Source of the DNA: Cinqassovirus ah1
Taxonomy: Duplodnaviria > Heunggongvirae > Uroviricota > Caudoviricetes > Straboviridae
Reading direction: 5' to 3' (one strand)
IMG/VR virus record: IMGVR_UViG_2974724611_000001
Location: 12,650-76,649 of that record
Length of the DNA stretch: 64,000 nucleotides
The translations under genes were made by a program, and so were the position numbers. Shown here piece after piece: positions 11,115 to 27,340 of the stretch (its first letter is position 1; each line of letters starts with the position of its first letter). Below the pieces are notes generated by a model. The model made no database searches. It was given only the letters and a program-made list of their open reading frames with translations, and was not told the DNA's origin.

Positions 11115-11230
11115 GTGCGCGGCACTTCGAGCGTAGCGAGACAAAACAAAATCTCTTATAGATCTTTAATGAGAATCTATTTTGTCTTCCTTAAGGTAAT
11201 CAATGAGTTAGCTTCGCGGTGGCTTGCCAC
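11115..11230. repeat. Copy 1 of a ~125-bp inverted-repeat element (partner at 27214-27340)
   Basis: The reverse complement matches 27231-27309 almost exactly (gcgaagctaactcattgattaccttaaggaagacaaaatagattctcattaaagatctataagagatttt...), with flanking similarity. Confidence 0.6.
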
Positions 11231-11238
11231 TTACCATA

Positions 11239-11262
11239 CGAAAAAGCCACCCGAAGGTGGCT
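11239..11262 (-). terminator. Rho-independent terminator, UUCG tetraloop
   Basis: Minus-strand RNA GCCACC-UUCG-GGUGGC followed by UUUUUCG. Confidence 0.6.
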
Positions 11263-11825
11263 CAAATGTCAAGCGTCTTAGCTTTGATGTATCCAGTTTG
11301 TTCGATGTACTGTTCCAACTCTTCTTTCGTCCACCGCTCTTTGTCAAGAGAAAGAACTTCCTTGATTTTTTCCTGATACTTCGTTCCCATAACGTCGTAA
11401 TCTTTTCCGCATCGATTCTCATATCTCTGTCTTGCTAATGCTTCATCAATAGGAAACTCTACCAACACGAAATCGTATTTAAGTCGCTTATACTCAATAA
11501 CAGGTTTATGGCCGTCCAAAATAACATACTCATATCCCATAGATTCGAGTTGTTCTAAAGAATATTGTAATGCACTATAAAATTGGACAGCAGGAGTTGT
11601 TTCGAAGCAATGATATGTATGATTTGAACTCCTACATTTCTTATTTCGATCATATGCTCCTATTGCACAAATCTTATCGTTGAACTTGGTATAACTAACC
11701 GTTGCTCCTTTCGGAGAAGGACAATCTATTTTATTTCTTGCATCCGGATTGAATTTATCTACAAGCGAATACATATAGGTAGTTTTTCCTGCGCCAGGAA
11801 TACCTAATAGCATTATTACTCTCAT
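11262..11825 (-). CDS. P-loop NTPase/kinase-like protein
   Basis: N-terminal Walker A MLLGIPGAGKTTY and a hhhhDG Walker B-like motif (YVILDGH). Confidence 0.55.
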   Translation of the reverse strand: MRVIMLLGIPGAGKTTYMYSLVDKFNPDARNKIDCPSPKGATVSYTKFNDKICAIGAYDRNKKCRSSNHTYHCFETTPAVQFYSALQYSLEQLESMGYEYVILDGHKPVIEYKRLKYDFVLVEFPIDEALARQRYENRCGKDYDVMGTKYQEKIKEVLSLDKERWTKEELEQYIEQTGYIKAKTLDI

Positions 11826-11843
11826 GATACCTCTTTTAGTTTT

Positions 11844-12239
11844 TCATAACCTAATTATGGCACACTTTATTTGAATAGTAAACAAAAGCCACCCGAAGGT
11901 GGCTATATTTATTAAAACATCTTCGCTATTTGTTGGATCGAGATATGGAACACCAGCTTCAATTTTTAACACATACGTGATATTTGTTGCTGTATCCAGA
12001 ATTTCATCCTGCTTAATTGCTTCTTCAACGAGTTTATCACCGACAACAACGCGACGCTTGCCGTCATTCGTTGCTGGTTTAGCGAGAGCTCCTACCATAT
12101 CGGCAGTATAGTCGCCAGCTTGCGGAAGAACGTTACCGTTTCTGTTATTGAACGACGAAACGTTAGCAGGCTTAGTACCCTCTGCCAAAATACCAGCAAC
12201 TCGTGGGTGTAAATTTTTGGATTTTAAACTGAGTGCCAA
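11844..12239 (-). CDS. Hypothetical protein (TTG start; 3' end reads through a terminator hairpin)
   Basis: 131-aa ORF with no in-frame ATG. The coding sequence runs through the GCCACC-UUCG-GGUGGC hairpin at 11884-11903. Confidence 0.3.
   Translation of the reverse strand: MALSLKSKNLHPRVAGILAEGTKPANVSSFNNRNGNVLPQAGDYTADMVGALAKPATNDGKRRVVVGDKLVEEAIKQDEILDTATNITYVLKIEAGVPYLDPTNSEDVLINIATFGWLLFTIQIKCAIIRL
11884..11903 (-). terminator. UUCG-tetraloop hairpin terminator (identical stem to 11246-11261)
   Basis: aaaagccacccgaaggtggc followed by a T-rich tract on the minus strand. Confidence 0.45.
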
Positions 12240-12344
12240 CAGGAATACCAGTAGCAGCGTTCAGAGGAATCCATGCTTTACCAACAATCACGTTTGGGAT
12301 TGTCTGCCATTTTAAATCTCCTATGTTTTATGTTATTTAACAAA

Positions 12345-12374
12345 ACAAAAAGGGAGCCGAAGCTCCCTTTTTGT
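12345..12374 (-). terminator. Bidirectional rho-independent terminator
   Basis: AAAAAGGGAGC-CGAA-GCTCCCTTTTT, with A/T runs on both sides. Confidence 0.55.
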
Positions 12375-12770
12375 TTAGACAGAACACACTGGTGTCAGTG
12401 AAACTTTCTCAGTCTCGCTGGCAGCTTCTGGCTTGCTTTCTTTTACTTTCTGATATGCTTCCATTACTAGCTCGTCATAACGCTGTTTGGAACTCATCCA
12501 GAGCGATTCCAGAACGTCTCTAGCAATAGGCTTTTGCAAAGTCAGAACACGGAGTTTCTCGATTGCGTAGATATACCCGTCTTTGTTACATACATGCAGA
12601 CATTCTTCCGCGTGTAGTCTCAGACGCTCAATCTCTTTCCGATTCTTGGCAAGATATTTCTTACTCTTCTTTTCTACCATAGATTTAATCGCGGCTTGTT
12701 CACGCTCTTTCGCTTCTTCGATTTCGCGTTGATCTTCGGCAATTACAGATTCAAGTTGTGTTTCAGTCAT
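12375..12770 (-). CDS. Hypothetical protein
   Basis: 131-aa ORF, charged and coiled-coil-like; its start overlaps the upstream gene stop. Confidence 0.5.
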   Translation of the reverse strand: MTETQLESVIAEDQREIEEAKEREQAAIKSMVEKKSKKYLAKNRKEIERLRLHAEECLHVCNKDGYIYAIEKLRVLTLQKPIARDVLESLWMSSKQRYDELVMEAYQKVKESKPEAASETEKVSLTPVCSV

Positions 12771-13078
12771 TTATTTTTCCATGTATAAGTGATAGTCAAA
12801 CCATTATCCACAATAGATAATTCACCATGCTTTAATACCATACGGTTAGAACGAATAGAAAGAGGATCAATAATCACCGGGATTCCAGATTCGAGCAATT
12901 TTAAATTTAGCATATAGGAAACTAGATCTAGTTCATAGTTTGACTCAATTAATAAGTCGATGGGATTTATGGATAATGAGATATTATTCGCTATCATCTT
13001 CATCATCCTCAAGGAATGACAGTCCGCCGAGTTGCTTGGGTTTCTTGGGCTTAATTTTTCTATTAGCCTCAAACTCAT
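12767..13078 (-). CDS. Hypothetical protein
   Basis: 103-aa ORF overlapping the gp55 3' end in another frame. Confidence 0.35.
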   Translation of the reverse strand: MSLRLIEKLSPRNPSNSADCHSLRMMKMIANNISLSINPIDLLIESNYELDLVSYMLNLKLLESGIPVIIDPLSIRSNRMVLKHGELSIVDNGLTITYTWKNK

Positions 13079-13505
13079 TCGCTTTCGTCATCATGTCATT
13101 ATAGAAGGCAACATCCACAAGTTTGGCCATGTCTTCGTCTTCGCCGTCATGAACATGTTCCAAGAAATATTTGTATTTAGCCGCTTCTTCCTGTTTCATG
13201 AATTTGATTCGATTGAAAAAGGCTCTGGCACAGATCATACTAATATATGCATGTGGATTACTATAACGCTGGGTATCAAAATTCTTGCAATATCGCAAGC
13301 ATACATCGATTGCCGCACCTACCATTGCTTCTTTCCATGTGTCGGTATAGCGATTAAATCGCCAATGATGCGTAAATCCTTCTGCGATCTTCATGATCGC
13401 TCCCCCGATAAATTCGGGCATTCTTTCATTTGGGTTTTCTTTTAACTTCTCTTTCCAAGCGACAAATGCCTGGTAAAGTTCCTCGTTATCAACATAATTT
13501 GCCAT
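12984..13505 (-). CDS. 55: Late-transcription sigma factor gp55
   Basis: 173 aa. YVDNEELYQAFVAWKEKL...NPHAYISMICARAFFNRIK aligns with T4 gp55 YVNNKELLQAIIDWKTEL...NPHAYITQACFNAFVQRIK. Confidence 0.85.
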   Translation of the reverse strand: MANYVDNEELYQAFVAWKEKLKENPNERMPEFIGGAIMKIAEGFTHHWRFNRYTDTWKEAMVGAAIDVCLRYCKNFDTQRYSNPHAYISMICARAFFNRIKFMKQEEAAKYKYFLEHVHDGEDEDMAKLVDVAFYNDMMTKANEFEANRKIKPKKPKQLGGLSFLEDDEDDSE

Positions 13506-13567
13506 AAAGGTATACTTCCCTCGTTTGTTTACAAGAGAAGTATACTATGAAAAGTTGATATTATAAA

Positions 13568-15007
13568 CTAAGGACGAATTGTAGAAACCCAATCTCGGAC
13601 CATTTTAACATGCTCCGGTTGTATAATGTCAAGCTTAAAATCCAATTTTCTGCACCAGCGATAGAACTTTCCTTGTTCTTCTTTTGACAACTCAAACATG
13701 GTGCCAAACGTGACTTTCTTCTTTCTTGGTGTAGTTTCTTTCTTACGCTCTTTGCGTTCTGGACCACTCACCATATGATCGGTATCAATCTTTGCCTCTG
13801 GTAGATATCTCGATTTCAGATATTCAGCGGCTCGCATATCTGGAACGATTAGCGTCACTTTCCATTTCGAATGCTGATTTCGAATATCGGTTCGCAAACA
13901 AAGCTGGAACACAGGCTCAAGATATTTCGATACCAGATAAGCGTCGATTAGTTTGTTTGTGTCCATATTATGGCAACTCGACAAGCATTTAAGCAACTCT
14001 ATTTGCCATGGCATTGGGTTATAGCTGAATAACGCTACCGCAGTCGTATGGCTCATGTAACTATTAAGTCCATGTGGATTATAAGCTACTCTGTGCCCCA
14101 CTTTCAGTGCCGCTCTATAGCTGTTCGTTGTATAGATGAACGGACTTATTCCAACCAAGTCGTAAACAACGTCCTTGACTTTGTTATAAACGCTTTCACC
14201 GTTGACGTCCTTATCTGCCGCATATCTAGACCATATGCCGTCATAAACGGGAATAATCTCAACTCGATTTGAGTTCGGATACTGAATGAAATCCAGCTTC
14301 TTCATTAGCGGACTTGTTTTAAACTTCCAGCCACAAAAGTCTTTGAGTACAACTCCGGTAAACGTTTCTCTAAAGTTAGCACAAGCGATTGTGATCTTAT
14401 CGAACTTGTTCCACTTTTGAGTTGTGCTATCATCGATGAAATATACCACATTATCTTTGACGATAACGGGAATACCCTGCAACAACGAGCGAGCCAACGA
14501 GAAAACGGAGCTTGAAACAACATCATGACCATATAGACCGTCTGTTGCTATCTTGTTTAGTTTTTCTCTATGATCTTCATCCAGCGTCATTCTACCGTCT
14601 TCGATCTTACAGTATTTTCCAATAAAGTCAAGGTTGTCCGTGAACTTTAATTGATTCAACTGCACAAAATCAGGCACTTCGTCAATATACAATTCGTGAC
14701 CACTCAGATCTTCATAATCTGGATATGTCAACAATGCGGCGTGAGTAATAAACAACACTCGATAATTGCCAGCACTTTCTTTGATTACCTCAGCCACGCT
14801 TTTGCTTCTACTAACATGATCCGAGTCGATGATAATACTATCATTTTCTCCTCCCAAGTTGTTATAGAAGTCATAACTTTGTTGTGATAGTTGACAACTA
14901 ATTGACGCAATCACACAAGGCTTTTTATTCTTTCTAACATGAGTCAGAATTGCTTTTGTCTTGCCAGCAGCAGGAACTGCCTGTAGAATCTCAACGTTTA
15001 ATGCCAT
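13568..15007 (-). CDS. P-loop NTPase of unknown function
   Basis: 479 aa. Walker-A-like AVPAAGKTKAI, Walker-B-like LYIDEVPDF, basic C-terminus. Confidence 0.5.
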   Translation of the reverse strand: MALNVEILQAVPAAGKTKAILTHVRKNKKPCVIASISCQLSQQSYDFYNNLGGENDSIIIDSDHVSRSKSVAEVIKESAGNYRVLFITHAALLTYPDYEDLSGHELYIDEVPDFVQLNQLKFTDNLDFIGKYCKIEDGRMTLDEDHREKLNKIATDGLYGHDVVSSSVFSLARSLLQGIPVIVKDNVVYFIDDSTTQKWNKFDKITIACANFRETFTGVVLKDFCGWKFKTSPLMKKLDFIQYPNSNRVEIIPVYDGIWSRYAADKDVNGESVYNKVKDVVYDLVGISPFIYTTNSYRAALKVGHRVAYNPHGLNSYMSHTTAVALFSYNPMPWQIELLKCLSSCHNMDTNKLIDAYLVSKYLEPVFQLCLRTDIRNQHSKWKVTLIVPDMRAAEYLKSRYLPEAKIDTDHMVSGPERKERKKETTPRKKKVTFGTMFELSKEEQGKFYRWCRKLDFKLDIIQPEHVKMVRDWVSTIRP

Positions 15008-15239
15008 TATCTACACCAAAAGCAATAGTATCGTACTCACGGAGAATAAAAGCAACCAGATGTTCGCGGAGAGCTTTCTTCATCCATGGAGTATCCTCTA
15101 CGACTTTTGTAACTGCATCATGCATCCACTTTACTTGTTCGTCTAGCCAAGCTGGATCACAAGCGAATCCAGTTTTCTTGCGAGATTCAACGGCTTCAAC
15201 GATTCTTGTATTGCAGATGTTTCCAAAAACGACGTTCAT
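14991..15239 (-). CDS. Hypothetical protein
   Basis: 82-aa ORF; 17-nt overlap with the downstream gene. Confidence 0.4.
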   Translation of the reverse strand: MNVVFGNICNTRIVEAVESRKKTGFACDPAWLDEQVKWMHDAVTKVVEDTPWMKKALREHLVAFILREYDTIAFGVDNGIKR

Positions 15240-15314
15240 TTATTCACCTCTCGTTACTGTATAAGCACTATTCTTGCATAGAATAGGACTTTAGTCAACA
15301 AAAAAGGTTCTGAC

Positions 15315-15815
15315 TTACGCCAGAACCTTGTTCCAATACTTATAGTTCATCTTTCGTGCTGTCTTGTAGCATTCAGCGGGATGTAACGGTTGTTTGTGCA
15401 AACGTTTCGCGCTTTTGACTACTTTAGCCCAGCCGTCGGGACGAATGTAGATCAGCCCTGCCCATTTAGGAACGTCATCTGGCGAAATGAGTCCTTCGGG
15501 TACTGCATACCAGAAATAGTTTGACATATCTCCGGCTTCCAACGCTTCTCGTTTCGTCTTGCGAGTCATCTTATGCGTTCGATACAGTGTGGGTTTCTCT
15601 AATTTTTCAAATATGCGAACAGACTTCTTGGCATCGGCTTTGAAATCTGCTTTACTTACCTTGATCTCTATTTCATCACACAAGCCACTCGGACGCAAGC
15701 AAAATAAATCTGCTTCGTTGTCATATAGCGTGTAACAATTTGGGACAATCAGATCATATCGTTTCTGAAATTCAGGTGTTCGTCCTATTGCTTTTTGTAC
15801 GTCCGATTCAGTCAT
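15315..15815 (-). CDS. Hypothetical protein, possible PD-(D/E)XK nuclease
   Basis: 166 aa. D(45)...CDEIEIK has the spacing expected of a PD-(D/E)XK catalytic core. The assignment is weak. Confidence 0.4.
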   Translation of the reverse strand: MTESDVQKAIGRTPEFQKRYDLIVPNCYTLYDNEADLFCLRPSGLCDEIEIKVSKADFKADAKKSVRIFEKLEKPTLYRTHKMTRKTKREALEAGDMSNYFWYAVPEGLISPDDVPKWAGLIYIRPDGWAKVVKSAKRLHKQPLHPAECYKTARKMNYKYWNKVLA

Positions 15816-16096
15816 ACCTGCTCCCCGTATTTTTGCTTGAAAGTCTCAAAACTTCCTATCCACTTATCGTCAACGAATATCTGTGGATATTGCCGAGGAG
15901 AGGTATCTTTGCCTGCTCTAATTCGACATTCTTCAATAGCGGGTCTGTTATATGCAAACCCTATTTGATTTGAATCTCGAACTATAACCGGAATGAATGT
16001 ATAATCGAGCCCATATGAGCGACAGAAATCAACGGCAGCAATACACCCAGGACATTTGAATAAGTCTTCTGGTATGCCGTAGATTTCTATTTTCAT
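15812..16096 (-). CDS. Glutaredoxin-like protein
   Basis: 94 aa with a CPGC active site and a Grx fold pattern (PxIFV.D.wIGG-like). Confidence 0.7.
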   Translation of the reverse strand: MKIEIYGIPEDLFKCPGCIAAVDFCRSYGLDYTFIPVIVRDSNQIGFAYNRPAIEECRIRAGKDTSPRQYPQIFVDDKWIGSFETFKQKYGEQV

Positions 16097-16365
16097 GCGT
16101 TTTCGTTTACCCAGGCTTTCAGTTCTTCAAAGCCACCGATGTATTCACCATCAGCGAATACTTGAGGCATAGAAGTAACAACAACACCATGCTCTTTTGC
16201 GCGGCGAGTTAGATCAGCTTTATTTGTTTTGTGTTCTTCTGTCTTACTGATTTTTGCAATCGGCAGAAAAACATAGTCTACCATTCTGGTGTCAAGCAGA
16301 CGCTTGGCATTCAGACAGGGTTTGCATTCGAGTTCGAGAGGATCGAAACCGTACACTTCCAGCAT
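16093..16365 (-). CDS. nrdH: NrdH-like glutaredoxin
   Basis: 90 aa with a CKPC active site, VPQVFADGEYIGGFEEL, and a position adjacent to the nrdDG cluster. Confidence 0.7.
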   Translation of the reverse strand: MLEVYGFDPLELECKPCLNAKRLLDTRMVDYVFLPIAKISKTEEHKTNKADLTRRAKEHGVVVTSMPQVFADGEYIGGFEELKAWVNENA

Positions 16366-16374
16366 TATTATTCC

Positions 16375-16758
16375 TTAAATTACTTGAGTAAAAGTTCGAT
16401 TGATAATATCAAGTTGTTGCTCGTTGGTCAGAGCAGAGAAACGAACGGCGTAGCCTGAAACTCTGATTGTCAGATTCGGATATTGTTCCGGGTGTTCCAT
16501 AGCATTTACCAGAGTTTCACGGGTGAACACATTAACATTGAGGTGTTGGCCACCGTTCGGCTGATATTCTTTAACGATGTCGATTTCGCGAGTAACAGCG
16601 AGATCAACTTGATGTTTCACGGCAACATATTTAACGCTGCCAGCTTTTAGAATTTCATCATCATGATAGCCGGGAGCACAAATAACTCGGATTGCATCTT
16701 CGGTAACAAATAGAATTGCACCACGCAAATGCCCGCTTAATACTTGAATTGCTTTCAT
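16375..16758 (-). CDS. grcA: Autonomous glycyl-radical cofactor (GrcA/YfiD, T4 Y06I-like)
   Basis: 127 aa. GGQHLNVNV...LTIRVSGYAVRF...LTNEQQLDIINRTFT is near-collinear with E. coli GrcA, including the RVSGY glycyl-radical motif. Confidence 0.88.
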   Translation of the reverse strand: MKAIQVLSGHLRGAILFVTEDAIRVICAPGYHDDEILKAGSVKYVAVKHQVDLAVTREIDIVKEYQPNGGQHLNVNVFTRETLVNAMEHPEQYPNLTIRVSGYAVRFSALTNEQQLDIINRTFTQVI

Positions 16759-17237
16759 ACATTCTCACTTATGTAAATGATGCGTTGATTACTGGACCCA
16801 CGGAACTTTAAATCAACGTCTTTAAGTTCTTCAACGAATTTTCCGTCAACAAGAACGTCAATCAGTGAAGTAACTATAACATTCTTTTTAGACTCAAGTA
16901 AACATTCTTCTTTGGTATATCCTGTCCAGAGCCAAACAGTTTTATTCGGGAACTCAGCACGAAACCATTTCAGAAACTCGATTAACGCATCCAGATTGCG
17001 CTCATACAACGGATCACCACCAAGCAGTGATATCCCATCACGCTTGATACGGGTATCGTTCATATCGCGTTCCACGAGCTTCCTTAGCTGAAACTCTTCT
17101 TCTGTCTTACCTTCCCATTTCCAAGTATTCTTTCCAAAGCAACCTTTGCATTGGTGACTACATCCAGCAAGCCAAATACTTGCGCGAGTACCAGTTCCGT
17201 TTAATACATCTAACGACTTATAATCCAAGATCTTCAT
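16755..17237 (-). CDS. nrdG: Anaerobic RNR activating enzyme NrdG (radical SAM)
   Basis: 160 aa with the CxxxCxxC cluster CSHQCKGC. Adjacent to nrdD. Confidence 0.9.
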   Translation of the reverse strand: MKILDYKSLDVLNGTGTRASIWLAGCSHQCKGCFGKNTWKWEGKTEEEFQLRKLVERDMNDTRIKRDGISLLGGDPLYERNLDALIEFLKWFRAEFPNKTVWLWTGYTKEECLLESKKNVIVTSLIDVLVDGKFVEELKDVDLKFRGSSNQRIIYISENV

Positions 17238-17255
17238 ATATTTTCCTTAATAAGA

Positions 17256-17276
17256 AAAGGGGCTTTCGCCCCTTTA
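17256..17276 (-). terminator. Hairpin terminator/attenuator between nrdD and nrdG, GAAA tetraloop
   Basis: AAAGGGGC-GAAA-GCCCCUUUU on the minus strand. Confidence 0.45.
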
Positions 17277-17277
17277 A

Positions 17278-19392
17278 TCACAAATGTTTACACCGCAACA
17301 TAACTTCTTGTTGTTTCCCGTGGTTGAATGGACGAGCATTTACTTCTCCCAGATAACCACAAACACGACGAATAACGTTCATTTTCTTGTCGTCGTGATT
17401 GCCGCATTTCGGACATTCGTACCCTTTGGAAGTAGCAGTGAATTCGCCATGATAGCCACATTCAAAGCAAACATCAACCGGAGTATTTGTTCCGTAATAC
17501 GGTGTGTTCAGATAAGCATAATCCCAAACGTCTTCCAGCGCTTTCAGATTATCTTTCATATTCGGATATTCACCGTATGAAATAAATCCGCCTGTACTCA
17601 GAGGAATAAATTGCTTTTCAAAATCGATCTTGTCATACGGATTAGTATTATGACGAACGTCGAGGTGAAAGCTGTTTGTGTAATAATCTTTATCGAACAC
17701 TTTATTTTCTGGATAACGTTCGCGATCAATCTTGGCGAAACGATAGCACAGACTTTCGGACGGAGTGCCGTACAGACTAAAAGCGAGTCCAGTTTGTTCT
17801 TTCCATGCATCTGCCAGCTCTTTCATTCGTTGAAGAACAGAAACAGCAAATACTTGTTTTGATTGATTTTCCATGATGTGTTCATCGATACCACGCATCA
17901 TAATTTCGGTGACTTCATGCAGACCGATATATCCAATACTCACGGAAGCGCGACCGTTATCAAACGCTTTCATGATATCATCATCTGGATTCAGACGTAC
18001 ACCACAAGCGCCTTCGACGTAAAGAATCGGAGCGACGCTGGCTTTGACTCCACGCAGACGATCAACGCGAGCAATCAACGCTTGCTTAACAACTTCCATA
18101 CGCTGTTCCAGAAGTTCCCAGAATCGCATATGATTGCCATTTGAATCGAGAGCGATTCGCGGCAGATTCAGAGTCACAACACCGAGATTATTTCTACCGT
18201 CGTGAACTTCATTACCGTTTTCGTCTTCCCAACGATGCAAGAAACTACGGCATCCCATAGGGAATTTAAAGCTACCTGTGATTTCAACAACTTTATCATA
18301 ACTCAGGATATCTGGATACATACGCTTAGAAGCGCACTCCAGTGCCAGTTGCTTGATTCGATAAAGCGGGTCAGTCGGCTTTAAGTTGTGTCCGTCTTTC
18401 AGAGCAAACACAAGTTTCGGGAACACCGGAGTGATACCCTCTTTGCCGAGTCCAGCTAATCGAACTTTCAAGATTGCTTCTTGAATCAGTTCGGCTTCCC
18501 AGCTTTCACCTAGACCAAATCCGAATGTGCAGAACGGGGTTTGGCCGTTTGCGGAGTGAAGAGTATTCACTTCGTATTCGAGACCCTGCATTGCATCATA
18601 CACAGCTTTGCGAGTCTTTGCAATAGCATATTCTTTCGCGTCTGGAATCTTCCAATAGCGAGCTTCGTCCAAATGCTTTTCGTGAGTCATTTTAACATAC
18701 GGTGCCAGCACTTCGTCAATGCGATTGATTGTGTTACCGCCATAAATGTGACTTGCCACTTGTGCAATAATCTGAGCGACTACAGCAGCAGCGGTAGAAA
18801 TGCTTTTCGGAGTTTCAATTTGTGCATTACCCATACGGAATCCACGTTCTAACATGCCTTTAACATCAATGAGCTGGCAGTTAAACATCGGGAAGAACGG
18901 TGAATAGTCAAGATCGTGGAAATGAATCCAACCCATTTCATGTGCTTGCATGACTTCGACAGGCAGATAATGCTTTGCAAAATGCTTGCTAACAATACCA
19001 GCTACCAGATCGCGTTGAGTAGGGATTACCTTAGCGTCTTTGTTGGCGTTTTCGTTCATGATTGATTCGTCGGATTGACGCATCAGGCCCATAATACGCT
19101 TTGTCATGTCAGAGTTAAGATCGCGGGCAACATCACGATCATATCGATATTCGATATAAGCGCGAGCCACAGCAGGATAGCGAGATCTCATTAGGGTATC
19201 TTCTACAGTATGCTGGATTTCTTCAATCGTTACTGTAGAGCGTCCAATGAGCTTACGAACAACAGCCTCGGTAGCGTGTTGCGGGAAAGTCATATCATTG
19301 ATGCCGATTGACTTGAGGGAATTGGTGATTGCGGTTTCAATAAAAGAACGATCAAAATCAACGATTCGACCGTCGCGTTTTTGTACTTGCAT
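17278..19392 (-). CDS. nrdD: Anaerobic ribonucleoside-triphosphate reductase NrdD
   Basis: 704 aa. ATP-cone N-terminus, a C-terminal CxxC...CPKCG zinc ribbon, and the glycyl-radical motif RRVCGYLG. Confidence 0.95.
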   Translation of the reverse strand: MQVQKRDGRIVDFDRSFIETAITNSLKSIGINDMTFPQHATEAVVRKLIGRSTVTIEEIQHTVEDTLMRSRYPAVARAYIEYRYDRDVARDLNSDMTKRIMGLMRQSDESIMNENANKDAKVIPTQRDLVAGIVSKHFAKHYLPVEVMQAHEMGWIHFHDLDYSPFFPMFNCQLIDVKGMLERGFRMGNAQIETPKSISTAAAVVAQIIAQVASHIYGGNTINRIDEVLAPYVKMTHEKHLDEARYWKIPDAKEYAIAKTRKAVYDAMQGLEYEVNTLHSANGQTPFCTFGFGLGESWEAELIQEAILKVRLAGLGKEGITPVFPKLVFALKDGHNLKPTDPLYRIKQLALECASKRMYPDILSYDKVVEITGSFKFPMGCRSFLHRWEDENGNEVHDGRNNLGVVTLNLPRIALDSNGNHMRFWELLEQRMEVVKQALIARVDRLRGVKASVAPILYVEGACGVRLNPDDDIMKAFDNGRASVSIGYIGLHEVTEIMMRGIDEHIMENQSKQVFAVSVLQRMKELADAWKEQTGLAFSLYGTPSESLCYRFAKIDRERYPENKVFDKDYYTNSFHLDVRHNTNPYDKIDFEKQFIPLSTGGFISYGEYPNMKDNLKALEDVWDYAYLNTPYYGTNTPVDVCFECGYHGEFTATSKGYECPKCGNHDDKKMNVIRRVCGYLGEVNARPFNHGKQQEVMLRCKHL

Positions 19393-19931: not shown

Positions 19932-19957
19932 AAAAAATCCGCCCGAAGGCGGATTCT
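19932..19957 (-). terminator. Rho-independent terminator, UUCG tetraloop
   Basis: AAUCCGCC-UUCG-GGCGGAUUUUUUA on the minus strand. Confidence 0.6.
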
Positions 19958-19958
19958 G

Positions 19959-21089
19959 TTAAACTTCTAGTTCTTCAAAGAAACTATCATCGAGAGTTGA
20001 ATCAACTTGTCCGATCAGATAGCTAGACAACTCAGCCTCTTGGGCAGCGACTTGAACGGAATCACTATTCAGCCACTTGCGAATCCACGGAAGAGGGTGT
20101 TTCATGCTGGTATTCAGTTCTTCCGGTGCAGGAAGACCAGCAGAGCGCATACGGCTTACAGTCAGATAATCGATGTAATCCAACATGCTAGATAGACTCA
20201 GGCCAGGAATAGTAACATTACCAAGCAAGTCTCTTGCCCAGTCTTTCTCTTGTTCGGCAACTTCCAAGAAGATTTGTACCGCTTTGTGTTCGAGACGTTT
20301 AGCAATCTCATACATTTCGGTATCATCTTCTGCATTCTGCCAAGCACGGATCAGATACTGGGTGCCTTTCAGATGAAGCTGTTCATCACGCGCAATCAGA
20401 CGCATAATCTTAGCATTGCCTTCCATGATACCGCGTTCAGCGAACGAGAAGGTGCAAGCAAAGCTAACATAAAAACGAATTGCTTCCAAAGCGTTTACGG
20501 CGTGCATTGCAAGATACAACGCTTCTTTGACCTTGGTCAGTTGTGCAATTCGCAACTCCGGAGAGAATACGGGCTGTGATACCAGATCGTATGTTTTCAA
20601 CTCTTTGATCAGATTATCGTAATACTGAGTTACAGAAGTGGCACGTGCCATGATCTTACTGTCAAGCAGAATCTTATCAAACACAGCAGACGGATCAACA
20701 TAGATATTCCGCATGATGTGAGTATAAGAACGGCTATGAATTGTCTCACTAAAACTCCAAGTAGTGATCCAAGTCTCAAGCGCAACATCGGACACGATTG
20801 GCAAGAATACCAAGTTAGGTGCGCGACCCTGCACGGAGTCAAGCAGACTTTGATATTTCAGATTCTGGGTGAAAACATGCTGTTCGGCTTCACTCAGTTG
20901 ATTGTAGTCGATTGCATCTTTGGACAAATCCACTTCTTCGGGACGCCAGAAAAATGAGAGCGAACGTTCCGTTAATTTATCAATCGCTGGGTGTTTTACT
21001 GTTTCATATCTGGCTAATCCCATTGCTTCGCCCAAGAACAACGGAGCTTTCATATGATCAACTACATTTTTATTAAATACGGTATCCAT
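19959..21089 (-). CDS. nrdB: Ribonucleotide reductase class Ia beta subunit NrdB
   Basis: 376 aa. Carries the diiron/tyrosyl-radical family signature (SFFWRPEEVD, ETIHSRSY) and the conserved C-terminal tail. Confidence 0.93.
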   Translation of the reverse strand: MDTVFNKNVVDHMKAPLFLGEAMGLARYETVKHPAIDKLTERSLSFFWRPEEVDLSKDAIDYNQLSEAEQHVFTQNLKYQSLLDSVQGRAPNLVFLPIVSDVALETWITTWSFSETIHSRSYTHIMRNIYVDPSAVFDKILLDSKIMARATSVTQYYDNLIKELKTYDLVSQPVFSPELRIAQLTKVKEALYLAMHAVNALEAIRFYVSFACTFSFAERGIMEGNAKIMRLIARDEQLHLKGTQYLIRAWQNAEDDTEMYEIAKRLEHKAVQIFLEVAEQEKDWARDLLGNVTIPGLSLSSMLDYIDYLTVSRMRSAGLPAPEELNTSMKHPLPWIRKWLNSDSVQVAAQEAELSSYLIGQVDSTLDDSFFEELEV

Positions 21090-21106
21090 TTTTATTCCTT
21101 GTTATA

Positions 21107-21120
21107 GGGGCCGAAGCCCC
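21107..21120 (-). terminator. Hairpin, UUCG tetraloop, between nrdA and nrdB
   Basis: GGGGC-UUCG-GCCCC. Confidence 0.4.
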
Positions 21121-21137
21121 TAGTGATAGACTTGATA

Positions 21138-23372
21138 TTAGACCTTGCACGTCTCGCATTCGGAAGAAGTATCTTCTGTGCCGTCTGCGCCGTCGCGAGT
21201 ATTAGAATAATACAGTGATTTAACACCATGTTTCTGTGCTCTTGACATATCTTTCAATACGACTTTCATCGGGATCTTCTCACCCGGATACACAGCAGGA
21301 TCATAATAAGTATTCGCACTAATCATTTGATCCACAAACTTCTGCATAATAGCTACAATGTCCAAGTAACCCTTCATGCCGCGTTTAGTCATCTGCCAAG
21401 CTGTTTCATACTCGCTACCAAGCATGTCTACCTCAGGCACTAGCTGATTAAACACACCATCTTTTGATTGCTTGGTACTCACTAGGCCGCGTGGTGGCTC
21501 AATACCGTTTGTGCTGTTGGTGATCTGTGAACTACTCTCACATGGCATAAATGCGCTTAGAGTATCGTTTCGCAATCCGTGCTTTTTGATCTCAGAACGT
21601 AGCCATTCCCAATCCATTTTCAGATCATTCGGAACGATATTATCAACGTTTTTGTTATACCAGTCAATCGGCAGCAGGCCATCAGCCCATTTTGTCTTAT
21701 GATGCCACTCGTTTGCACCGCGTTCTTTCGCCAGCTCCATAGACGCTACCAAGTTCGCAAACTGCATCATTTCCATGGTGCGGTGAACAAGCTTGTTTGC
21801 ATTGCCGCTAGAGTAGTTAACAAAATTCTTCGCCAAGAAATAAGCAAAGTTTGTTACACCAATACCCAATGCGCGACGCTTCTTAGCTGCCAGTGCTTGA
21901 ACAACTGGATAATCCTGATAGTCAAGCAAGTTATCGAGTGCGCGAACAGCAGCACGAGCCACGTTTAGGAAGTCTTCATAACCCTCAATTGCACCGAGAT
22001 TATATGCTGCTAAAGTGCAGAGCGCCACCTCCCCGGACCCGTCTTTCTTGACTGGGTATGTGGGCAAGGCAATTTCAATGCAAAGGTTGGACTGTCGAAT
22101 CGGCTCTTTGTACGGAGTAGCCGAGTTAACGTTATCAACGAACATCGGATAAATGCGACCGGTACCAGTTCTTTCTTGTGCGAACAGATTGAACAACTCA
22201 GAGGCTTTGATACGCTTCTTACGACACCAAGGTTCATTTTCCAACATTTCGTACATTTCTTTGAACTTCACTGGATCAGAATAGAACAGATTGTAAAGCT
22301 CGCCGTTTTGAACGTCCGGACTAAAGAGCGTGATATAGTCGTCATTTTTCAGACGCTCGAAAAACAGCTTGTTGATTTGGATACCGTAGTCAAGCTGACG
22401 AATTCGATTTTCTTCCACGCCCTTGTTGTTTTTCAAAACAAGGATTTTTTCAACTTCAAGATGCCACATCGGATAGTAAAGAGTAGCAGCACCGCCGCGA
22501 ACACCACCCTGTGAGCAACTTTTTACCGCAGTCTGGAAATGTTTCCAGAACGGAATAATACCAGTGTGACGAACTTCACCACTTCGAATGCGAGAGCCTT
22601 CGGCACGAATAGCGCCACCGTTGATGCCGATACCAGCTCGTTTGCTGATATAGTCAACGATTGAACTTGCGGTAGCGTTAATGCTATCGAGTTCATCACC
22701 ACATTCAATCTTGACGCATGAGCTAAATTGACGAGTCGGAGTACGAACACCAGCAAGAATCGGCGTCGGTAGACTCAGTTTGCCCAAAGAAGTTACGTCA
22801 TAAAAGTTTTTAACTTTAGCAATTCTATCTGTTTTTTCGTCTTGGTGCAAGCACATTGCAACAAGCATATACAACATTTGCGGGGTTTCGTACAATTCGC
22901 CTGTACTGCGATCTTTCGCCAAATACTTTTCTTTGAATTGCATTACACCAGCATAAGCCAGATTAAAATCGCGTTCATGTTTGATATAGCTATTCAGCTC
23001 ATTAAATTCTTCGTCTGTCCACTTAGCGGCAAGATCTTTATCATAGATGCCGTCTTGTACCAAGTCCAGAGTGTGTCGTTTCAGATGAATCGGATCAAAC
23101 TGATTATAAACGTCTTTGCGAATAGCGTACATTTGCAGACGAGCAGAAACATATTGATAATCAGATTGTTCAATAGAGATTCGATCCGCCGCAAACTTGA
23201 TTGCCAGCTTTTGAATGTCTTTTGTACTCATGCCGTCAGTGATTGAAGGCATAATACCACTCATGATTTCGTTTGGATCGATTCGAGTTCCAGCGGTGGC
23301 GAACCCAAGAATTTTCAACAGCTTGTTGGAATCAAAATTCTCAGTTATACCACTTGATTTTCTTACCAGCAT
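21138..23372 (-). CDS. nrdA: Ribonucleotide reductase class Ia alpha subunit NrdA
   Basis: 744 aa. N-terminal ATP cone (VRKSSGITENFDSNKL) and a C-terminal CxxC tail. Confidence 0.95.
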   Translation of the reverse strand: MLVRKSSGITENFDSNKLLKILGFATAGTRIDPNEIMSGIMPSITDGMSTKDIQKLAIKFAADRISIEQSDYQYVSARLQMYAIRKDVYNQFDPIHLKRHTLDLVQDGIYDKDLAAKWTDEEFNELNSYIKHERDFNLAYAGVMQFKEKYLAKDRSTGELYETPQMLYMLVAMCLHQDEKTDRIAKVKNFYDVTSLGKLSLPTPILAGVRTPTRQFSSCVKIECGDELDSINATASSIVDYISKRAGIGINGGAIRAEGSRIRSGEVRHTGIIPFWKHFQTAVKSCSQGGVRGGAATLYYPMWHLEVEKILVLKNNKGVEENRIRQLDYGIQINKLFFERLKNDDYITLFSPDVQNGELYNLFYSDPVKFKEMYEMLENEPWCRKKRIKASELFNLFAQERTGTGRIYPMFVDNVNSATPYKEPIRQSNLCIEIALPTYPVKKDGSGEVALCTLAAYNLGAIEGYEDFLNVARAAVRALDNLLDYQDYPVVQALAAKKRRALGIGVTNFAYFLAKNFVNYSSGNANKLVHRTMEMMQFANLVASMELAKERGANEWHHKTKWADGLLPIDWYNKNVDNIVPNDLKMDWEWLRSEIKKHGLRNDTLSAFMPCESSSQITNSTNGIEPPRGLVSTKQSKDGVFNQLVPEVDMLGSEYETAWQMTKRGMKGYLDIVAIMQKFVDQMISANTYYDPAVYPGEKIPMKVVLKDMSRAQKHGVKSLYYSNTRDGADGTEDTSSECETCKV

Positions 23373-23409
23373 TAAAGCTCCGTTGTGTTATGTGTTGGAG
23401 GAGAGTTTC

Positions 23410-23446
23410 ATTATACAACAATCACGGTTGATGTAAACAAATTACA
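23410..23446 (-). promoter_or_regulatory. Sigma70-type promoter for nrdA, with a palindrome over the -35 box
   Basis: Minus strand: TTTACA, 16 nt, TATAAT. The -35 box lies in the 7-bp inverted repeat GATGTAA-acaaa-TTACATC (23428-23446). Confidence 0.45.
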
Positions 23447-23463
23447 TCTTTAGTTTCAAAGAA

Positions 23464-23483
23464 AATCCCTCATCTGCGGGATT
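23464..23483 (-). terminator. Hairpin terminator after the 299-aa repeat protein
   Basis: AATCCC-gcagatga-GGGATT followed by a U-rich tract. Confidence 0.4.
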
Positions 23484-23582
23484 GTTATTTAGATTTGATT
23501 GTAATGATTATCACCAAATGTCATTACATTTAGCCAATGACGAGCCAGCTCAATCCTAGCATCATAATATTTTACATTCTTA

Positions 23583-24482
23583 CTATAGCATACCGCATTT
23601 TGAGGACTGGTATCGTCTTTGATGCCAATTAGTTTTCGCGATTTTCATCACATTTTCGATTACTTTCAGCCAATGACGAGCCAGCTCCAAACGCGCCTCA
23701 TAGTATGAGGTATCATACTTCATCAAACCGTGAGCTTCGTCCTTAAACTGTTTGATTGCTTGATCTCGCTTGTGATCTTCGATTGTGTAGTGTTTTGCGC
23801 GAGGATCCGGCATGAAGTTCTTAACTTCATCATTATCAAGCATGATGATGTAACCTTTCCAACCACTCCAATATTTGTAGTCTTGAAGCAAGTATTCATC
23901 GTTCAACTTTACTTTGATCATTTCACACAGACCTTCCTTGAGATGGTCGCGAGTGATTTTACCAGAGATTACATCGCGCAAAATTTCGCGAGATTCTTCC
24001 CAGTCTTGGCGATTATATACATAATGACGAACCAAATCGTTCATTTTATCCTGACGTTCAATAGCATCACAATATTCGGATTGAAGTTTAAGAATGTAGC
24101 GCAGCCAGTGACGAGCCAGTTCCAGGCGAGCTTCCCAGTATCCGTCGTTACCAACTTCGTCTTCTTCGTGATATTGTCTGATTGCCTCTTTCAGAGGATC
24201 TTCCATTTCATCCGGATTGCCAATGATAATACAGTGACCTTCCCAACCACTAAAGAATTTATAATCGTCCAGTGTACCAAGACTACACAAATCGATGCCA
24301 CCTGCTCGGGAGCCAGTTACATAACAGAGACCGATTTTACACTCTTCACGGGTAATGCTACCGTCGATTACGGCTTGCAGTTTTGATTTTGTTACGTCGA
24401 AACGTGCTTTGTTCTTGACGTAGTGTTTAACAGCTTCGGAAACCATCGGGTCGTTGATGATGCGAGTTTGCAGTTCGTTCAT
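23583..24482 (-). CDS. Hypothetical protein with an internal tandem duplication
   Basis: 299 aa. Two ~140-aa repeats each end in YWEARLELARHWL / YYEARLELARHWL. Confidence 0.55.
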   Translation of the reverse strand: MNELQTRIINDPMVSEAVKHYVKNKARFDVTKSKLQAVIDGSITREECKIGLCYVTGSRAGGIDLCSLGTLDDYKFFSGWEGHCIIIGNPDEMEDPLKEAIRQYHEEDEVGNDGYWEARLELARHWLRYILKLQSEYCDAIERQDKMNDLVRHYVYNRQDWEESREILRDVISGKITRDHLKEGLCEMIKVKLNDEYLLQDYKYWSGWKGYIIMLDNDEVKNFMPDPRAKHYTIEDHKRDQAIKQFKDEAHGLMKYDTSYYEARLELARHWLKVIENVMKIAKTNWHQRRYQSSKCGML

Positions 24483-24535
24483 AATGTATTCCTAGTTTAT
24501 GTTATGTAGCTATATTAGCGGGTTCGCGAGTTGTG

Positions 24536-24706
24536 TCAATTGGTTTCGGAAAGAAATTTGATATCTTCTTTTGCGTCTTCAATGCGAAGATATTCACCAC
24601 GTAGAACACTGTCCATTACCATAGCAGTAGAGCGTTCATTTTTGTCCTTGCTCTTGAGCATAGCGTTAATCTTTGATCTGATTTCAAATGCTTCTTCTAG
24701 TGTCAT
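24536..24706 (-). CDS. Small hypothetical protein (56 aa)
   Basis: MTLEEAFEIRSKINAMLKSK..., with an AGAGGA SD 7 nt upstream. Below the ORF-track cutoff. Confidence 0.4.
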   Translation of the reverse strand: MTLEEAFEIRSKINAMLKSKDKNERSTAMVMDSVLRGEYLRIEDAKEDIKFLSETN

Positions 24707-24762
24707 GGTATTATCCTCTAAAACAATAAAGCCAGTCTACATGGACTGGCTGTTATGTCAAA

Positions 24763-25257
24763 TCAATTATGAAGTTTTTTCATCATTTTTGGAAATTCCT
24801 TGTTGAACACTTTGCAGAGTTCTGCCTTAGTCATTCCTTCATTATACGCGAATCCATATCGTTGCAGTTCTGCGATCATCGCTGGCTTATCTTGGCGAGC
24901 GAATCGCTTTTTAGTATCAGGAACAAGTTTCGGGTGTATGTCGTTTTTGCTGCTATCTTTTTTCAGATAAGCCAACAACGCTTCCAGATACTCGATGTAA
25001 TCGATACCACGTCCTGCTAATCCAGAGCGCATAAACTCATGGCGAGTTCGTCCTTCAGACCCGTTGCAGAGATTACAAAGCAGACCGCGCACACGACCGG
25101 CTTGTGGTCCGTCTAGTTCGTGATCGTGATCCAAATGATTCTTGTTGATTTCTTTGTCTAGTTCGCGTTTGCAAATCGGACAAATTCCATTTTGAGCATG
25201 ATACAGTTTTTCTTTTGCGAGATCATAAGTTTTGGGAGTTAGGAGCATTAGAGTCAT
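24763..25257 (-). CDS. 49: Endonuclease VII (Holliday-junction resolvase) gp49
   Basis: YHAQNGICPICKREL...NHLDHDHELDGPQAGRVRGLLCNLCN is collinear with T4 EndoVII YDAQNGKCLICQREL...NHLDHDHELNGPKAGKVRGLLCNLCN. Confidence 0.92.
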   Translation of the reverse strand: MTLMLLTPKTYDLAKEKLYHAQNGICPICKRELDKEINKNHLDHDHELDGPQAGRVRGLLCNLCNGSEGRTRHEFMRSGLAGRGIDYIEYLEALLAYLKKDSSKNDIHPKLVPDTKKRFARQDKPAMIAELQRYGFAYNEGMTKAELCKVFNKEFPKMMKKLHN

Positions 25258-25299
25258 TCCATTTTTGATAGTATGACTCTATTTAGCGATTACAGGTGG

Positions 25300-25881
25300 T
25301 TATCTACCCATTTTCAGGACTTGATGCGTTTCGATATATTTGATGTTTGATTTCACCATTTTACCGTCTTTGTGCATATACCAATTGCCGTTTTTGTCAT
25401 AAGCATAGATTAGCCCAGTCTGACCCATAAACAGCATTGCATTCGATGATGGGTTATTGGTAAACGATGTATAACTAATGATTCCACCTTGTTCCATAAA
25501 TCCCTGAACAAATCCCATGAATCGAGTAACAACACGACTCGGCGGAATACCGTTTTCTTGACTCATAATCCGAAGCGGGAAATTGCGCCCAATCGCAATT
25601 TCTTTCTGCCGTTTTGCATCGGCACCTACCCAGATTTTGTCGTCTTTCAGTATCAGATTGATCGGACTCGAATACTCATTATTGATCCAGTTATCACGGG
25701 TCAGATGATGAAACTTAGCAGTAACATCCATATCACCGATTGTCATGAAAAACGTGGCAACTTTTGATTTCGGATCAAACTCAACAAGTCGGCAGCGTTT
25801 GCTTTTGATGATAGTATAATCACCAACGCACAACTCTCGGTATTGATCTTCTGGCTTTGCGATTTCTTCAATTACAAACAT
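25300..25881 (-). CDS. Hypothetical protein
   Basis: 193-aa ORF. Confidence 0.5.
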   Translation of the reverse strand: MFVIEEIAKPEDQYRELCVGDYTIIKSKRCRLVEFDPKSKVATFFMTIGDMDVTAKFHHLTRDNWINNEYSSPINLILKDDKIWVGADAKRQKEIAIGRNFPLRIMSQENGIPPSRVVTRFMGFVQGFMEQGGIISYTSFTNNPSSNAMLFMGQTGLIYAYDKNGNWYMHKDGKMVKSNIKYIETHQVLKMGR

Positions 25882-25926
25882 TAATCATATCTCCATGGCA
25901 AATCGAGTACATGTTCCAGACTACCG

Positions 25927-26397
25927 TTATTGGTAGAGTTGAACGGCTTCATAATCGCCAGATTCAACAGCGATAGCATAGTGCGCCATGCCTTTGTTGT
26001 CAATCAAAATCAAACAAGGATCTGCTTCTATGATACCAATTCGCACACCCTCAACTTTAGAGCTGGTTTTATCCCATAGCAGTGTGATCCCAGTTTCGGC
26101 AACAACTTTCACTTCATCAACAAAATCGCCAACATTGATCACACTGCGATTGGTATAGAAAAGCTCACCATTTTCGATTGTATAGTCGGACATATGAATT
26201 AGATACATCGGGCGACCAATCGGATCTTTTGCATTGCGCCAGCGTCCATTTTCAAACACGAGTTCGGAATAAGCGATTTCTCCGATTGTGATCTTGATTG
26301 AGTTCGATGTTACCTCAGTCAAAACACCTTGCAGTCCTTTTACACGAACAACATTGCCGATTTCAACTTTTTTCTTGTCTTCTGAATAACGAAACAT
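25927..26397 (-). CDS. Hypothetical protein
   Basis: 156-aa ORF. Confidence 0.5.
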   Translation of the reverse strand: MFRYSEDKKKVEIGNVVRVKGLQGVLTEVTSNSIKITIGEIAYSELVFENGRWRNAKDPIGRPMYLIHMSDYTIENGELFYTNRSVINVGDFVDEVKVVAETGITLLWDKTSSKVEGVRIGIIEADPCLILIDNKGMAHYAIAVESGDYEAVQLYQ

Positions 26398-26398
26398 G

Positions 26399-26956
26399 TT
26401 AACCCCGATATTGATTGACTACACAGATATGGGTATTGTTAATGAACATACGACCTTCCGAGTCCGGTTCTACAAAGTAGAGTGTTTGTCCAGTTGCAAC
26501 AATAACACGCTCTTTACCGTCTTCTGTTTTTACCACGATAGCGTTTTTCTCGCCACGACTTGGATTGAAAATGATCTCGTTTTTAGACATACCAAACGAG
26601 CCAACAGCAATTACCGTGCCCTTGTAATAGGTAGAGTCCACACAGAAGCCAATCTCTTCGCCAGCAGCGATTGGCTGCTTTATGCCGTAATCATACAGCA
26701 TACCGAGACTCATTCCATAGCGTGAGTTCATACCGCTACCAGAAACAGTGTAGCCATGATCTGAACTATGACAGGTATAACGATAGGACTTGGAACTCAG
26801 TTGATAGAATTCCATTTCTATTTTTTCACCGGTTTCGCTATCAGTCAAGTAAACTTTCTTTCCTTCGATTTTGTTGATAGTCAACAGTTGATAACGTCCG
26901 AAGCCAATAACATCACCAACAGTAAGACGTTTAGGATTAACAATTTTACAAATCAT
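26399..26956 (-). CDS. Hypothetical protein
   Basis: 185-aa ORF, 1 nt after the upstream start. Confidence 0.5.
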   Translation of the reverse strand: MICKIVNPKRLTVGDVIGFGRYQLLTINKIEGKKVYLTDSETGEKIEMEFYQLSSKSYRYTCHSSDHGYTVSGSGMNSRYGMSLGMLYDYGIKQPIAAGEEIGFCVDSTYYKGTVIAVGSFGMSKNEIIFNPSRGEKNAIVVKTEDGKERVIVATGQTLYFVEPDSEGRMFINNTHICVVNQYRG

Positions 26957-27126
26957 TTGTTCATTCTCATTTCACGTTTAAGGCGTTCGATGCGCTGCTT
27001 AATAGCAACACCGTCAGGAGTACACACAGAAGCACCGGACGCGGTATGGATCTGCATAGCATAAGCATTGATTTTGATCATCGGCTTGTACTTCATACGA
27101 TTCATAATACGTTTCAGGTAGTTCAT
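26953..27126 (-). CDS. Small basic hypothetical protein
   Basis: ORF trimmed to MNYLKRIMNRMKYK... with a GGAG SD. The track's longer ORF reads into the repeat element. Confidence 0.4.
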   Translation of the reverse strand: MNYLKRIMNRMKYKPMIKINAYAMQIHTASGASVCTPDGVAIKQRIERLKREMRMNK

Positions 27127-27213
27127 GATGTTCTCCGTAGTTGATAATTGGAGTATAGCGATTGGATTCCTACTGTCAAACATTATTTCGATCAAATAGT
27201 AATCTACTCCAGA

Positions 27214-27340
27214 AAGTCGCGCCAGCGACTGCGAAGCTAACTCATTGATTACCTTAAGGAAGACAAAATAGATTCTCATTAAAGATCTATAAGAGATTTT
27301 ATTTTGTCTTTGTTCGCTACGCTCACAAGTGCTGGCGCAC
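27214..27340. repeat. Copy 2 of the inverted-repeat element, plus adjacent nested stem-loops
   Basis: 27231-27309 is near-identical to the reverse complement of 11133-11217. Flanking hairpins: AGTCGC-gcca-GCGACT, and CCAGCGATTC...GAATCGCTGG (27335-27395). Confidence 0.6.

Follow-up and report, generated by a model that had tools for sequence, protein, structure and literature searches.

Short palindromic repeat families (REP/BIME, ERIC, Correia elements and miniature inverted-repeat transposable elements, MITEs) are a hallmark of bacterial chromosomes and, to our knowledge, are hardly known in strictly lytic, tightly packed phages. The ERIC/IRU elements of enterobacteria are imperfect palindromes of about 127 bp; the BIME-1/RIP elements of E. 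coli (REP-IHF-REP, where IHF is integration host factor) occupy extragenic spacers at the ends of operons; and the Correia (CREE/NEMIS) elements of Neisseria affect neighbouring promoters and form a hairpin in transcripts. The invertible promoter switch fimS also has an IHF site. In phages, the counterparts to consider are the PeSL cassettes, defined by a Shine-Dalgarno sequence and a start codon at the 3' extremity (PMC4122927). Here we describe an intergenic repeat seen as an inverted pair in a 64-kb window (64,000 nt) of Aeromonas phage Ah1 (MG250483.1; Straboviridae, Cinqassovirus; 100% identity; a window position is the record position minus 12,649). The two arms prove to be neighbouring copies within a dispersed family of imperfectly palindromic intergenic repeats of about 120-180 bp, which is specific to one clade of T4-like Aeromonas phages in three genera (Ah1/Aeh1/avDM12, PX29/AsFcp and phiAS5/phiWae14). 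The element is apparently undescribed so far: no account of it was found in literature searches, nor in papers on PeSL cassettes and reviews of T4 mobile DNA and of T4 origins.

A repeat search of the window finds two inverted arms, 11130-11227 and 27221-27318, which are 98 nt long and 92% complementary; just one other inverted pair of at least 30 nt occurs in these 64 kb (42 nt at 71%) and, because it is far weaker, chance is excluded for the 98-nt pair. In pairwise alignment about 85 nt of the two copies are almost identical; the ends are related but diverged. A preliminary description of this DNA had called a near-identical inverted-repeat pair, located in intergenic spacers and carrying internal hairpins, and in this it was right: its boundaries agree with ours, the inner hairpin is confirmed, and the GenBank record MG250483.1 places the copies between gp47 and Ah1_00028 and between Ah1_00050 and Ah1_00051. 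It named an element present only twice as an outcome that would refute its reading; a search of the whole Ah1 genome (with exact and mismatch patterns, and with R1, a sequence-only model of the 77-nt core made with a covariance-model tool) yields eight copies, six of them outside the window. Those on the + strand lie at 23.8, 78.2, 107.9 and 108.0 kb of the record, the last two forming a 180-bp tandem, and those on the − strand at 39.9, 136.7, 173.5 and 218.6 kb; the window holds only the first copy on each strand (23.8 kb, +; 39.9 kb, −). A weak partial R1 match at record 48018-48064 (E = 0.036, model positions 17-60), in an intergenic or open reading frame (ORF) region, is probably due to chance.

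The survey extends in full or nearly so to PX29 and phiAS5, as to Ah1, to most of Aeh1 and to three slots of avDM12. There are at least seven copies in Aeh1, seven in PX29 and six in phiAS5, and blastn points to one further copy each in Aeh1 and phiAS5. With copy 1 as query, blastn returns several matching places in each of 13 GenBank phage records, all of Aeromonas. Besides Ah1, the only IMG/VR contigs with the element, in three scans, are those of Aeh1, PX29 and phiAS5, and two scans of JGI metagenomes did not find it; the remaining matches in these scans failed the full-length model. A search for a host origin with a degenerate core pattern, in 185,579 bacterial and archaeal species genomes, gave no credible match, the hits being AT-rich chance matches in Clostridium and Bacteroidota only. 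Neither Rfam (gathering and E-value thresholds) nor a tRNA/tmRNA search matches the element.

The copies occupy the same seven intergenic slots across the three genera; a check against the annotation recovers seven of seven in PX29 and six in phiAS5. We call forward the strand that carries AAAGACAAAATAAAATC, and sense a copy whose forward strand is the coding strand of the flanking genes. At S1, between gene 47 and the next ORF, the element is antisense in Ah1, Aeh1, avDM12 and PX29, and was not found in phiAS5; at S2, between the 174-nt ORF Ah1_00050 and Ah1_00051, it is sense in Ah1, Aeh1 and PX29 and antisense in avDM12 and phiAS5. It is antisense at S3 (large ORF Ah1_00126 / ADP-ribosylglycohydrolase) and at S4 (gp26/gp54), where Ah1 and Aeh1 have the tandem copy, is sense to the Ah1_00232 family gene at S5 (Ah1_00232 family / gp15), and is sense at S6 (vs.1/pseT.2). 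At S7, between an ndd-like gene and the next ORF, it is sense in Ah1, Aeh1 and avDM12 and antisense in PX29 and phiAS5. Five slots thus keep one orientation, and the other two vary between lineages by flips that take in the whole unit, terminal hairpins included; both orientations at one locus are known here between lineages, from assemblies alone. Within Ah1, four copies are on the + strand and four on the − strand, among genes that lie mostly on the − strand.

Every copy is an imperfect palindrome. The unit starts with one or two short GC-rich hairpins (GTGC-n-GCAC or GTC-n-GAC, then GCGGC-GTA-GCCGC), then CTAG or CTAA and a variable linker that sometimes holds an extra GTTAC..GTAAC hairpin. 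It proceeds through an inner AT-rich hairpin (arms of 18 nt, AAGACAAAATAAAATCTC / GAGAATCTATTTTGTCTT; loop of 15 nt, conserved), a variable stretch of 11 nt and a conserved block, (A)ATCAATGAGTTAGC, to a right end made of a single GC hairpin or of two, at least four sequence types of which occur, and closes on a tail that reads TTTCTGGAG (Shine-Dalgarno-like) or TTTCTGGAAGAG. Left and right ends repeat each other in inverted orientation: the phiAS5 right hairpin, GCGGC-TAC-GCCGC, matches the left one exactly when reverse-complemented, and an avDM12 copy is bounded by TCGAAGATTGC / GCAATCTTCGA. Copy 1, at slot S1 upstream of gene 47, spans 11115-11230 on the + strand, its forward strand antisense to the flanking genes, with the R1 match at 11138-11213 (record 23787-23862). 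Its left terminal hairpin, GTGC-GCG-GCAC, lies at 11115-11125, its inner hairpin at 11138-11188 (arms 11138-11155 and 11171-11188, conserved loop 11156-11170), and its right terminal hairpin, GTGG-CTTG-CCAC, at 11219-11230. Copy 2, at slot S2, spans 27216-27340 on the − strand, its forward strand sense to the flanking genes Ah1_00050 and Ah1_00051, with the core at 27235-27311 and a tail reaching to about 27200 (TTTCTGGAGTAGATTA, 27200-27215). Here the left terminal hairpin is GTGC-GCCA-GCAC (27329-27340), the inner hairpin runs from 27260 to 27310 (arms 27293-27310 and 27260-27277, loop 27278-27292), and the right terminal hairpin is AGTCGC-TGGC-GCGACT (27215-27230).

Of 29 copies, 24 have a perfect GC-rich hairpin in the left terminal flank and 25 in the right, against about four in shuffled flanks (maximum 10-11 in 200 shuffles). 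The hairpins draw on at least eight different stems, so that conservation applies to the pairing rather than to the sequence. The inner stem is Watson-Crick in 84% of its cells and shows compensatory change in four to five pairs, with double change in four. Folded as RNA, the consensus reaches −28.5 kcal/mol on the reverse strand, with G.U at 6-7 positions, and −13.9 kcal/mol on the forward strand, with one G.U position; wobble pairs and fold energy of the inner stem would thus point to a role of the reverse strand as RNA. One outer pairing favours the forward strand, contrary to the inner stem, and the strand call is for this reason suggestive.

Beyond the inner hairpin, the conserved CAAnnnnTTAGC block fits the IHF consensus, WATCAANNNNTTR. 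The match reads AATCAATGAGTTA in both copies of the window (11198-11210, + strand, in copy 1; 27238-27250, − strand, in copy 2), and these are two of the seven matches to the consensus in the 64 kb; the expectation by chance is about 0.007 per core. The predicted site fits the strict consensus in all eight Ah1 copies, seven of seven in Aeh1, four of six in phiAS5 and two of seven in PX29, and CAAnnnnTTA is invariant in the 30 copies examined, its four middle bases varying.

Cores are 86-94% identical within a genome, against 72-81% between genera. All seven PX29 copies have changed GACAAAA/TTTTGTC to GAGAAGA/TCTTCTC, a genus-specific double compensatory change in the stem, and the Ah1 copy at S7 has the loop variant of the Ah1 copy at S6, which the Aeh1 orthologue at S7 lacks. 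The S1 copy, in turn, has kept a slot-specific left flank in Ah1, Aeh1 and PX29. Copies that are homogenised and yet retain this flank have therefore descended vertically in place, patched by gene conversion. As far as sequence comparison goes, the likeness within genomes and the stem changes shared by the PX29 copies indicate concerted evolution under selection. Consensus cores are 74-82% identical between genera where alignable flanking genes are 68-70% identical; such conservation in non-coding DNA argues for purifying selection, by a modest margin. In-place flips could arise by the same route: as the termini are mutually inverted repeats, a paralogue would be able to pair with a copy, and convert it, either way round.

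In most cases a copy separates the end of a transcription unit from the promoter that follows. At S1 the order is the Ah1_00028 terminator, copy 1 and the gene-47 promoter: an intrinsic-terminator-like hairpin of the upstream unit lies just beyond the right end of the copy (11244-11263, − strand), and a sigma-70-like promoter for gene 47, TTGACT-17-TATCAT (11083-11111, − strand), abuts its left end and fires away from it, outside the repeat. At S2 the order is a strong stem-loop, copy 2 and the Ah1_00050 promoter. The stem-loop, reported in the preliminary description and confirmed, lies between the Ah1_00051 stop codon and the copy (27345-27403, − strand; −26.2 kcal/mol, z = −5.8), and the sigma-70-like promoter for Ah1_00050, TTGACA-16-TATACT (27152-27179, − strand), about 35 nt past the right end. 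At S6 and S7 consensus promoters stand just past the element tail, and the left hairpin of the S6 copy scores as a terminator; in all, four slots directly adjoin sigma-70-like promoters whose direction is away from the element. The scans place these promoters outside the conserved unit, which bears out the earlier view that the element is no simple promoter. The preliminary description was right, too, in taking it for a non-coding repeat of intergenic spacers with internal structure. A sigma-70 promoter within the element was considered and not called by the scan (the internal TTGATT-18-TAGATT scores 8/12), and readings of the core as a late promoter (TATAAATA) or a MotA box were unconvincing by eye. 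Inspection of S3, S4 and S5 by eye shows no more than late-type motifs, CTAAATA or TATAAATA, directed away from the left end. The second tandem copy at S4 has a tail that forms a good promoter-like site (TTTACT-17-TATAAT, 10/12; Ah1 record 108123-108151), which runs antisense into gp54. At S5 the Ah1_00232 family gene has its actual translation start in the tail, GGAAGAG-N8-ATG, in each of the three genera, and several other copies carry a vestige of this start as ATGAAC or TTGTAC.

The stem-loop at 27345-27403 has GC-containing arms of 10-12 bp, CCAGCGATTC/GAATCGCTGG, around an inner hairpin of about 37 nt, and a related GGAGCGAT..ATCGCTCC stem-loop stands beside the copy at the ndd slot in Ah1 and phiAS5 (L006 20724-20790; L009 ~1628-1695).

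We put at about even the chance that the family is a conserved boundary element of the ERIC/BIME/PeSL kind, tolerant of orientation and under selection, whose function is here read from sequence and position. Selection would maintain it as a module of boundary or punctuation that works either way round: its stacked hairpins would form in transcripts or unwound DNA entering the spacer from either side, and would stop or process read-through and insulate the next promoter, while the AT-rich inverted repeat with the IHF-like site would offer a point for protein binding and bending upstream of that promoter. As the best-conserved DNA in otherwise diverged spacers, the element would also give co-infecting relatives a landing pad for homologous exchange; high recombination would keep the copies uniform and allow related phages to exchange there. 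Several findings weigh against this. A T-run adequate for the terminator scan follows one terminal hairpin only; three slots are without an adjacent sigma-70-like promoter, there being none at the element edge at S3 and S5 and only an antisense one at S4; and the strict IHF consensus fails in two of six phiAS5 and five of seven PX29 copies. The core is, further, only moderately better conserved between genera than alignable flanking genes (74-82% against 68-70%), and it is asymmetric and conserved in sequence including the loop, neither of which generic hairpin punctuation needs.

In a possible, if doubtful, alternative, the copies are not hairpin punctuation at all but cis-acting sites bound as double-stranded DNA by host IHF and a phage protein, the slots forming an operator regulon upstream of promoters or a set of replication or organisation sites. 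It would account for an element that stands in both orientations, in an apparently non-transcribed spacer between terminator and promoter, and for a match to the IHF consensus expected by chance at about 0.007 per core; the symmetric arm changes of all PX29 copies suit the half-sites of a dimer as well as they suit a hairpin. Terminal hairpins that keep their pairing and not their sequence, on the other hand, speak for structure in a single strand, and a reverse strand that folds twice as well, with 6-7 G.U positions against one, speaks for RNA. The candidate partner is Ah1_00232 (record 136038-136643; L004 37038-37643), encoded on the opposite strand between gp14 and gp15, a Cys/His-rich protein of 201 aa that is homing-endonuclease-like and nuclease-less. 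It matches the middle, non-catalytic part of phage (HNH) endonuclease PHROGs, no nuclease domain being detected, and gives a sub-threshold match to a CapR-homology domain; CapR itself has been proven to be a repressor that derives from a domesticated endonuclease and binds upstream of a promoter (PMC8096241). The Ah1_00232 family gene begins 8 nt past the tail of one copy in three genera and is confined to element-bearing records, apart from one match at 24% identity. Ah1_00232 may be a domesticated homing-endonuclease DNA-binding protein. Against such a partnership, co-occurrence of protein and element is confounded by common descent, the CapR match stays below the Pfam threshold, and PDB sequences and NCBIfam offer no informative match and no support. 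That the seven slots are cis-acting sites read by a zinc-finger protein of this very family together with host IHF, its own gene being fused to one copy, we hold to be improbable. If it were true, the slots would form one operator network across the phage genome, or defined sites of replication or organisation, about as many as the five to seven origins of T4, and gene conversion would keep the sites uniform so that one protein could read them all.

It is likewise unlikely that the family is a selfish, non-autonomous element of MITE type, left by an ancestral invasion and kept by gene conversion with no function for the phage. Such an origin fits a small palindromic element with inverted repeats at its ends and no coding capacity, present in multiple copies and both orientations, and it fits the tandem duplication at gp26/gp54 in Ah1 and Aeh1 and the in-place flips; the same seven slots recur, however, with no new insertion site in Ah1, PX29, phiAS5, most of Aeh1 or the three avDM12 slots, and inspection of the outer boundaries of 29 copies showed no target-site duplication. 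The 355 annotated features of Ah1 include no transposase or recombinase (a result from annotation, with no systematic scan of the proteome), the element has not been found in the hosts or other viruses searched, and its 74-82% identity has been kept across genera whose alignable genes are 68-70% identical. A multi-copy gene for a small RNA or a short peptide (MRIYFVF...) is very unlikely. An ATG-initiated frame does open in the loop of all copies, with some conservative changes (such as R to K and F/V to L), and the reverse strand joins a promoter-like spacing, TTGA..-18-TA.ATT by eye, to a stable conserved hairpin. Yet no Shine-Dalgarno sequence precedes the ATG, 4 of 30 copies have a stop at codon 4 or 10, the C-termini vary in both frame and length, and the variable sites are without 3-periodicity (7/6/9 of 14); on these four grounds the peptide gene was rejected. 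For the RNA, the internal promoter-like site reaches 8/12, is not called by the scan and has its −10 box inside a hairpin arm, and no Rfam family matches. The least credible reading, to which we give next to no chance, is one of those raised in the preliminary description, by which the inverted pair specifically brackets the 16-kb gp55-nrd-EndoVII module and inverts it. With 98 nt at 92% in inverted orientation there is homology enough for T4-type recombination, but there are eight copies and not two, so that the interval is simply the stretch between S1 and S2 of a family present in both orientations; the order and strand of the genes in the block are the same in Ah1, Aeh1, avDM12 and PX29; and crossing-over between most pairs of copies would delete or invert essential regions.

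Exchange at the copies, which had been offered as an alternative to inversion, finds some support at S2 in avDM12 and, in gene content, at S1. At S2, nucleotide identity between avDM12 and Ah1 is 86% up to the promoter side of the slot and then stops, the DNA beyond being unalignable; the avDM12 element is of phiAS5 type and flipped, and the gene beyond it is 47% identical in protein. The avDM12 S2 slot is, on this comparison, a mosaic junction. Next to S1 there are no extra genes in PX29, two in Ah1 and five in Aeh1 and avDM12. The avDM12 genome as a whole, filed under Chrysonvirus, is 99.5% identical to Ah1 at S3 and phiAS5-like at S2, and is therefore mosaic.

A seeming ninth copy in avDM12 was discarded as an artefact, since the record starts and finishes inside slot S2: in avDM12-TAAL (OP380604.1; L035 1-332, L036 1130-1491) the same element and its flanks are duplicated at both record ends, and a poly-A run closes the 3' end; this looks like an assembly artefact or breakpoint at the repeat. 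The element also opens ORFs (MRIYFVF...), at 11067-11438 (+) and 26953-27279 (−) in the window; both contain MRIYFVFLKVINELAS, with which the preliminary description had both begin, but the plus-strand ORF starts earlier, at GTG 11067. In Aeh1 such an ORF, Aeh1p059 (L007 49489-49671), is annotated as a gene and is probably spurious. Between S1 and S2, nrdA is intact in Ah1 (744 aa; window 21138-23372) and is split by the homing endonuclease gene mobE in Aeh1 (L007 41489-44628); in Ah1, mobE instead adjoins uvsX. Elsewhere in the window (19876-61815, − strand), at least nine repeats in five families, D1-D5, combine a terminator hairpin (AAAAAGCCACCCGAAGGTGGCTTTTT type), a near-consensus early promoter and CTGAGGAAAACATCATG (Shine-Dalgarno sequence and start codon); they are PeSL-like regulatory cassettes such as have been described in other T4-type phages, though apparently not in this clade.

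The family offers a clean natural system in which to measure gene conversion among short repeats under T4-type recombination, and it suggests a mechanism by which mosaic exchange may happen at fixed junctions, one that complements the PeSL model. Its eight copies are defined targets for asking what punctuates transcription or replication in T4-like genomes, and the repeat flags mis-annotated ORFs, such as Aeh1p059, and the avDM12 assembly breakpoint.

Set beside the known systems, the element resembles ERIC/IRU in size, imperfect palindromy, intergenic position, occurrence in either orientation and lack of coding capacity, and differs from it in having no related sequence, in being phage-borne and not chromosomal, and in its tiny copy number and fixed positions. 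With BIME-1/RIP it shares a mosaic of small, inverted, GC-rich palindromic units that flank an IHF-consensus site, predicted in our case; it is unrelated in sequence, has the long AT-rich hairpin in addition and no known partner of RAYT type, and no REP family of a host chromosome matched it in the bacterial genome collection. Correia elements, at 100-150 bp, likewise have terminal inverted repeats and a central IHF site (here again predicted), whereas our element shows no TA duplication and no sequence similarity to them, and its sites are fixed and not polymorphic. Invertible switches such as fimS and Hin/Gin correspond to it as segments bounded by inverted repeats that are found in both orientations at one locus; the flips of the element are seen between lineages only, there is no clear internal promoter, and no recombinase is annotated in Ah1. 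The PeSL/PmSL mobile regulatory cassettes (Arbiol 2010, PMC2839356; Comeau 2014, PMC4122927) are likewise repeated and intergenic in T4-like phages, with a stem-loop beside promoters and one extremity that bears a Shine-Dalgarno sequence and a start codon, and they share with the element a link to exchange junctions and to variation in gene content. In our family a terminal hairpin abuts the −35 box at the gene-47 slot and, in phiAS5 and PX29, at the ndd slot, and the Shine-Dalgarno sequence with ATG is used at one slot (Ah1_00232 family gene) and vestigial elsewhere. Unlike a PeSL, however, the element has a long conserved core that is not a promoter, with no sigma-70 promoter inside the conserved unit, and it occurs in both orientations and in seven fixed slots only, some of them in regions of core genes; because it lacks a good internal promoter and is found both ways round, we do not file it as a PeSL. 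What it adds to these systems is a phage-borne, low-copy repeat family that has kept its slots through the divergence of three genera while evolving in concert and flipping freely.

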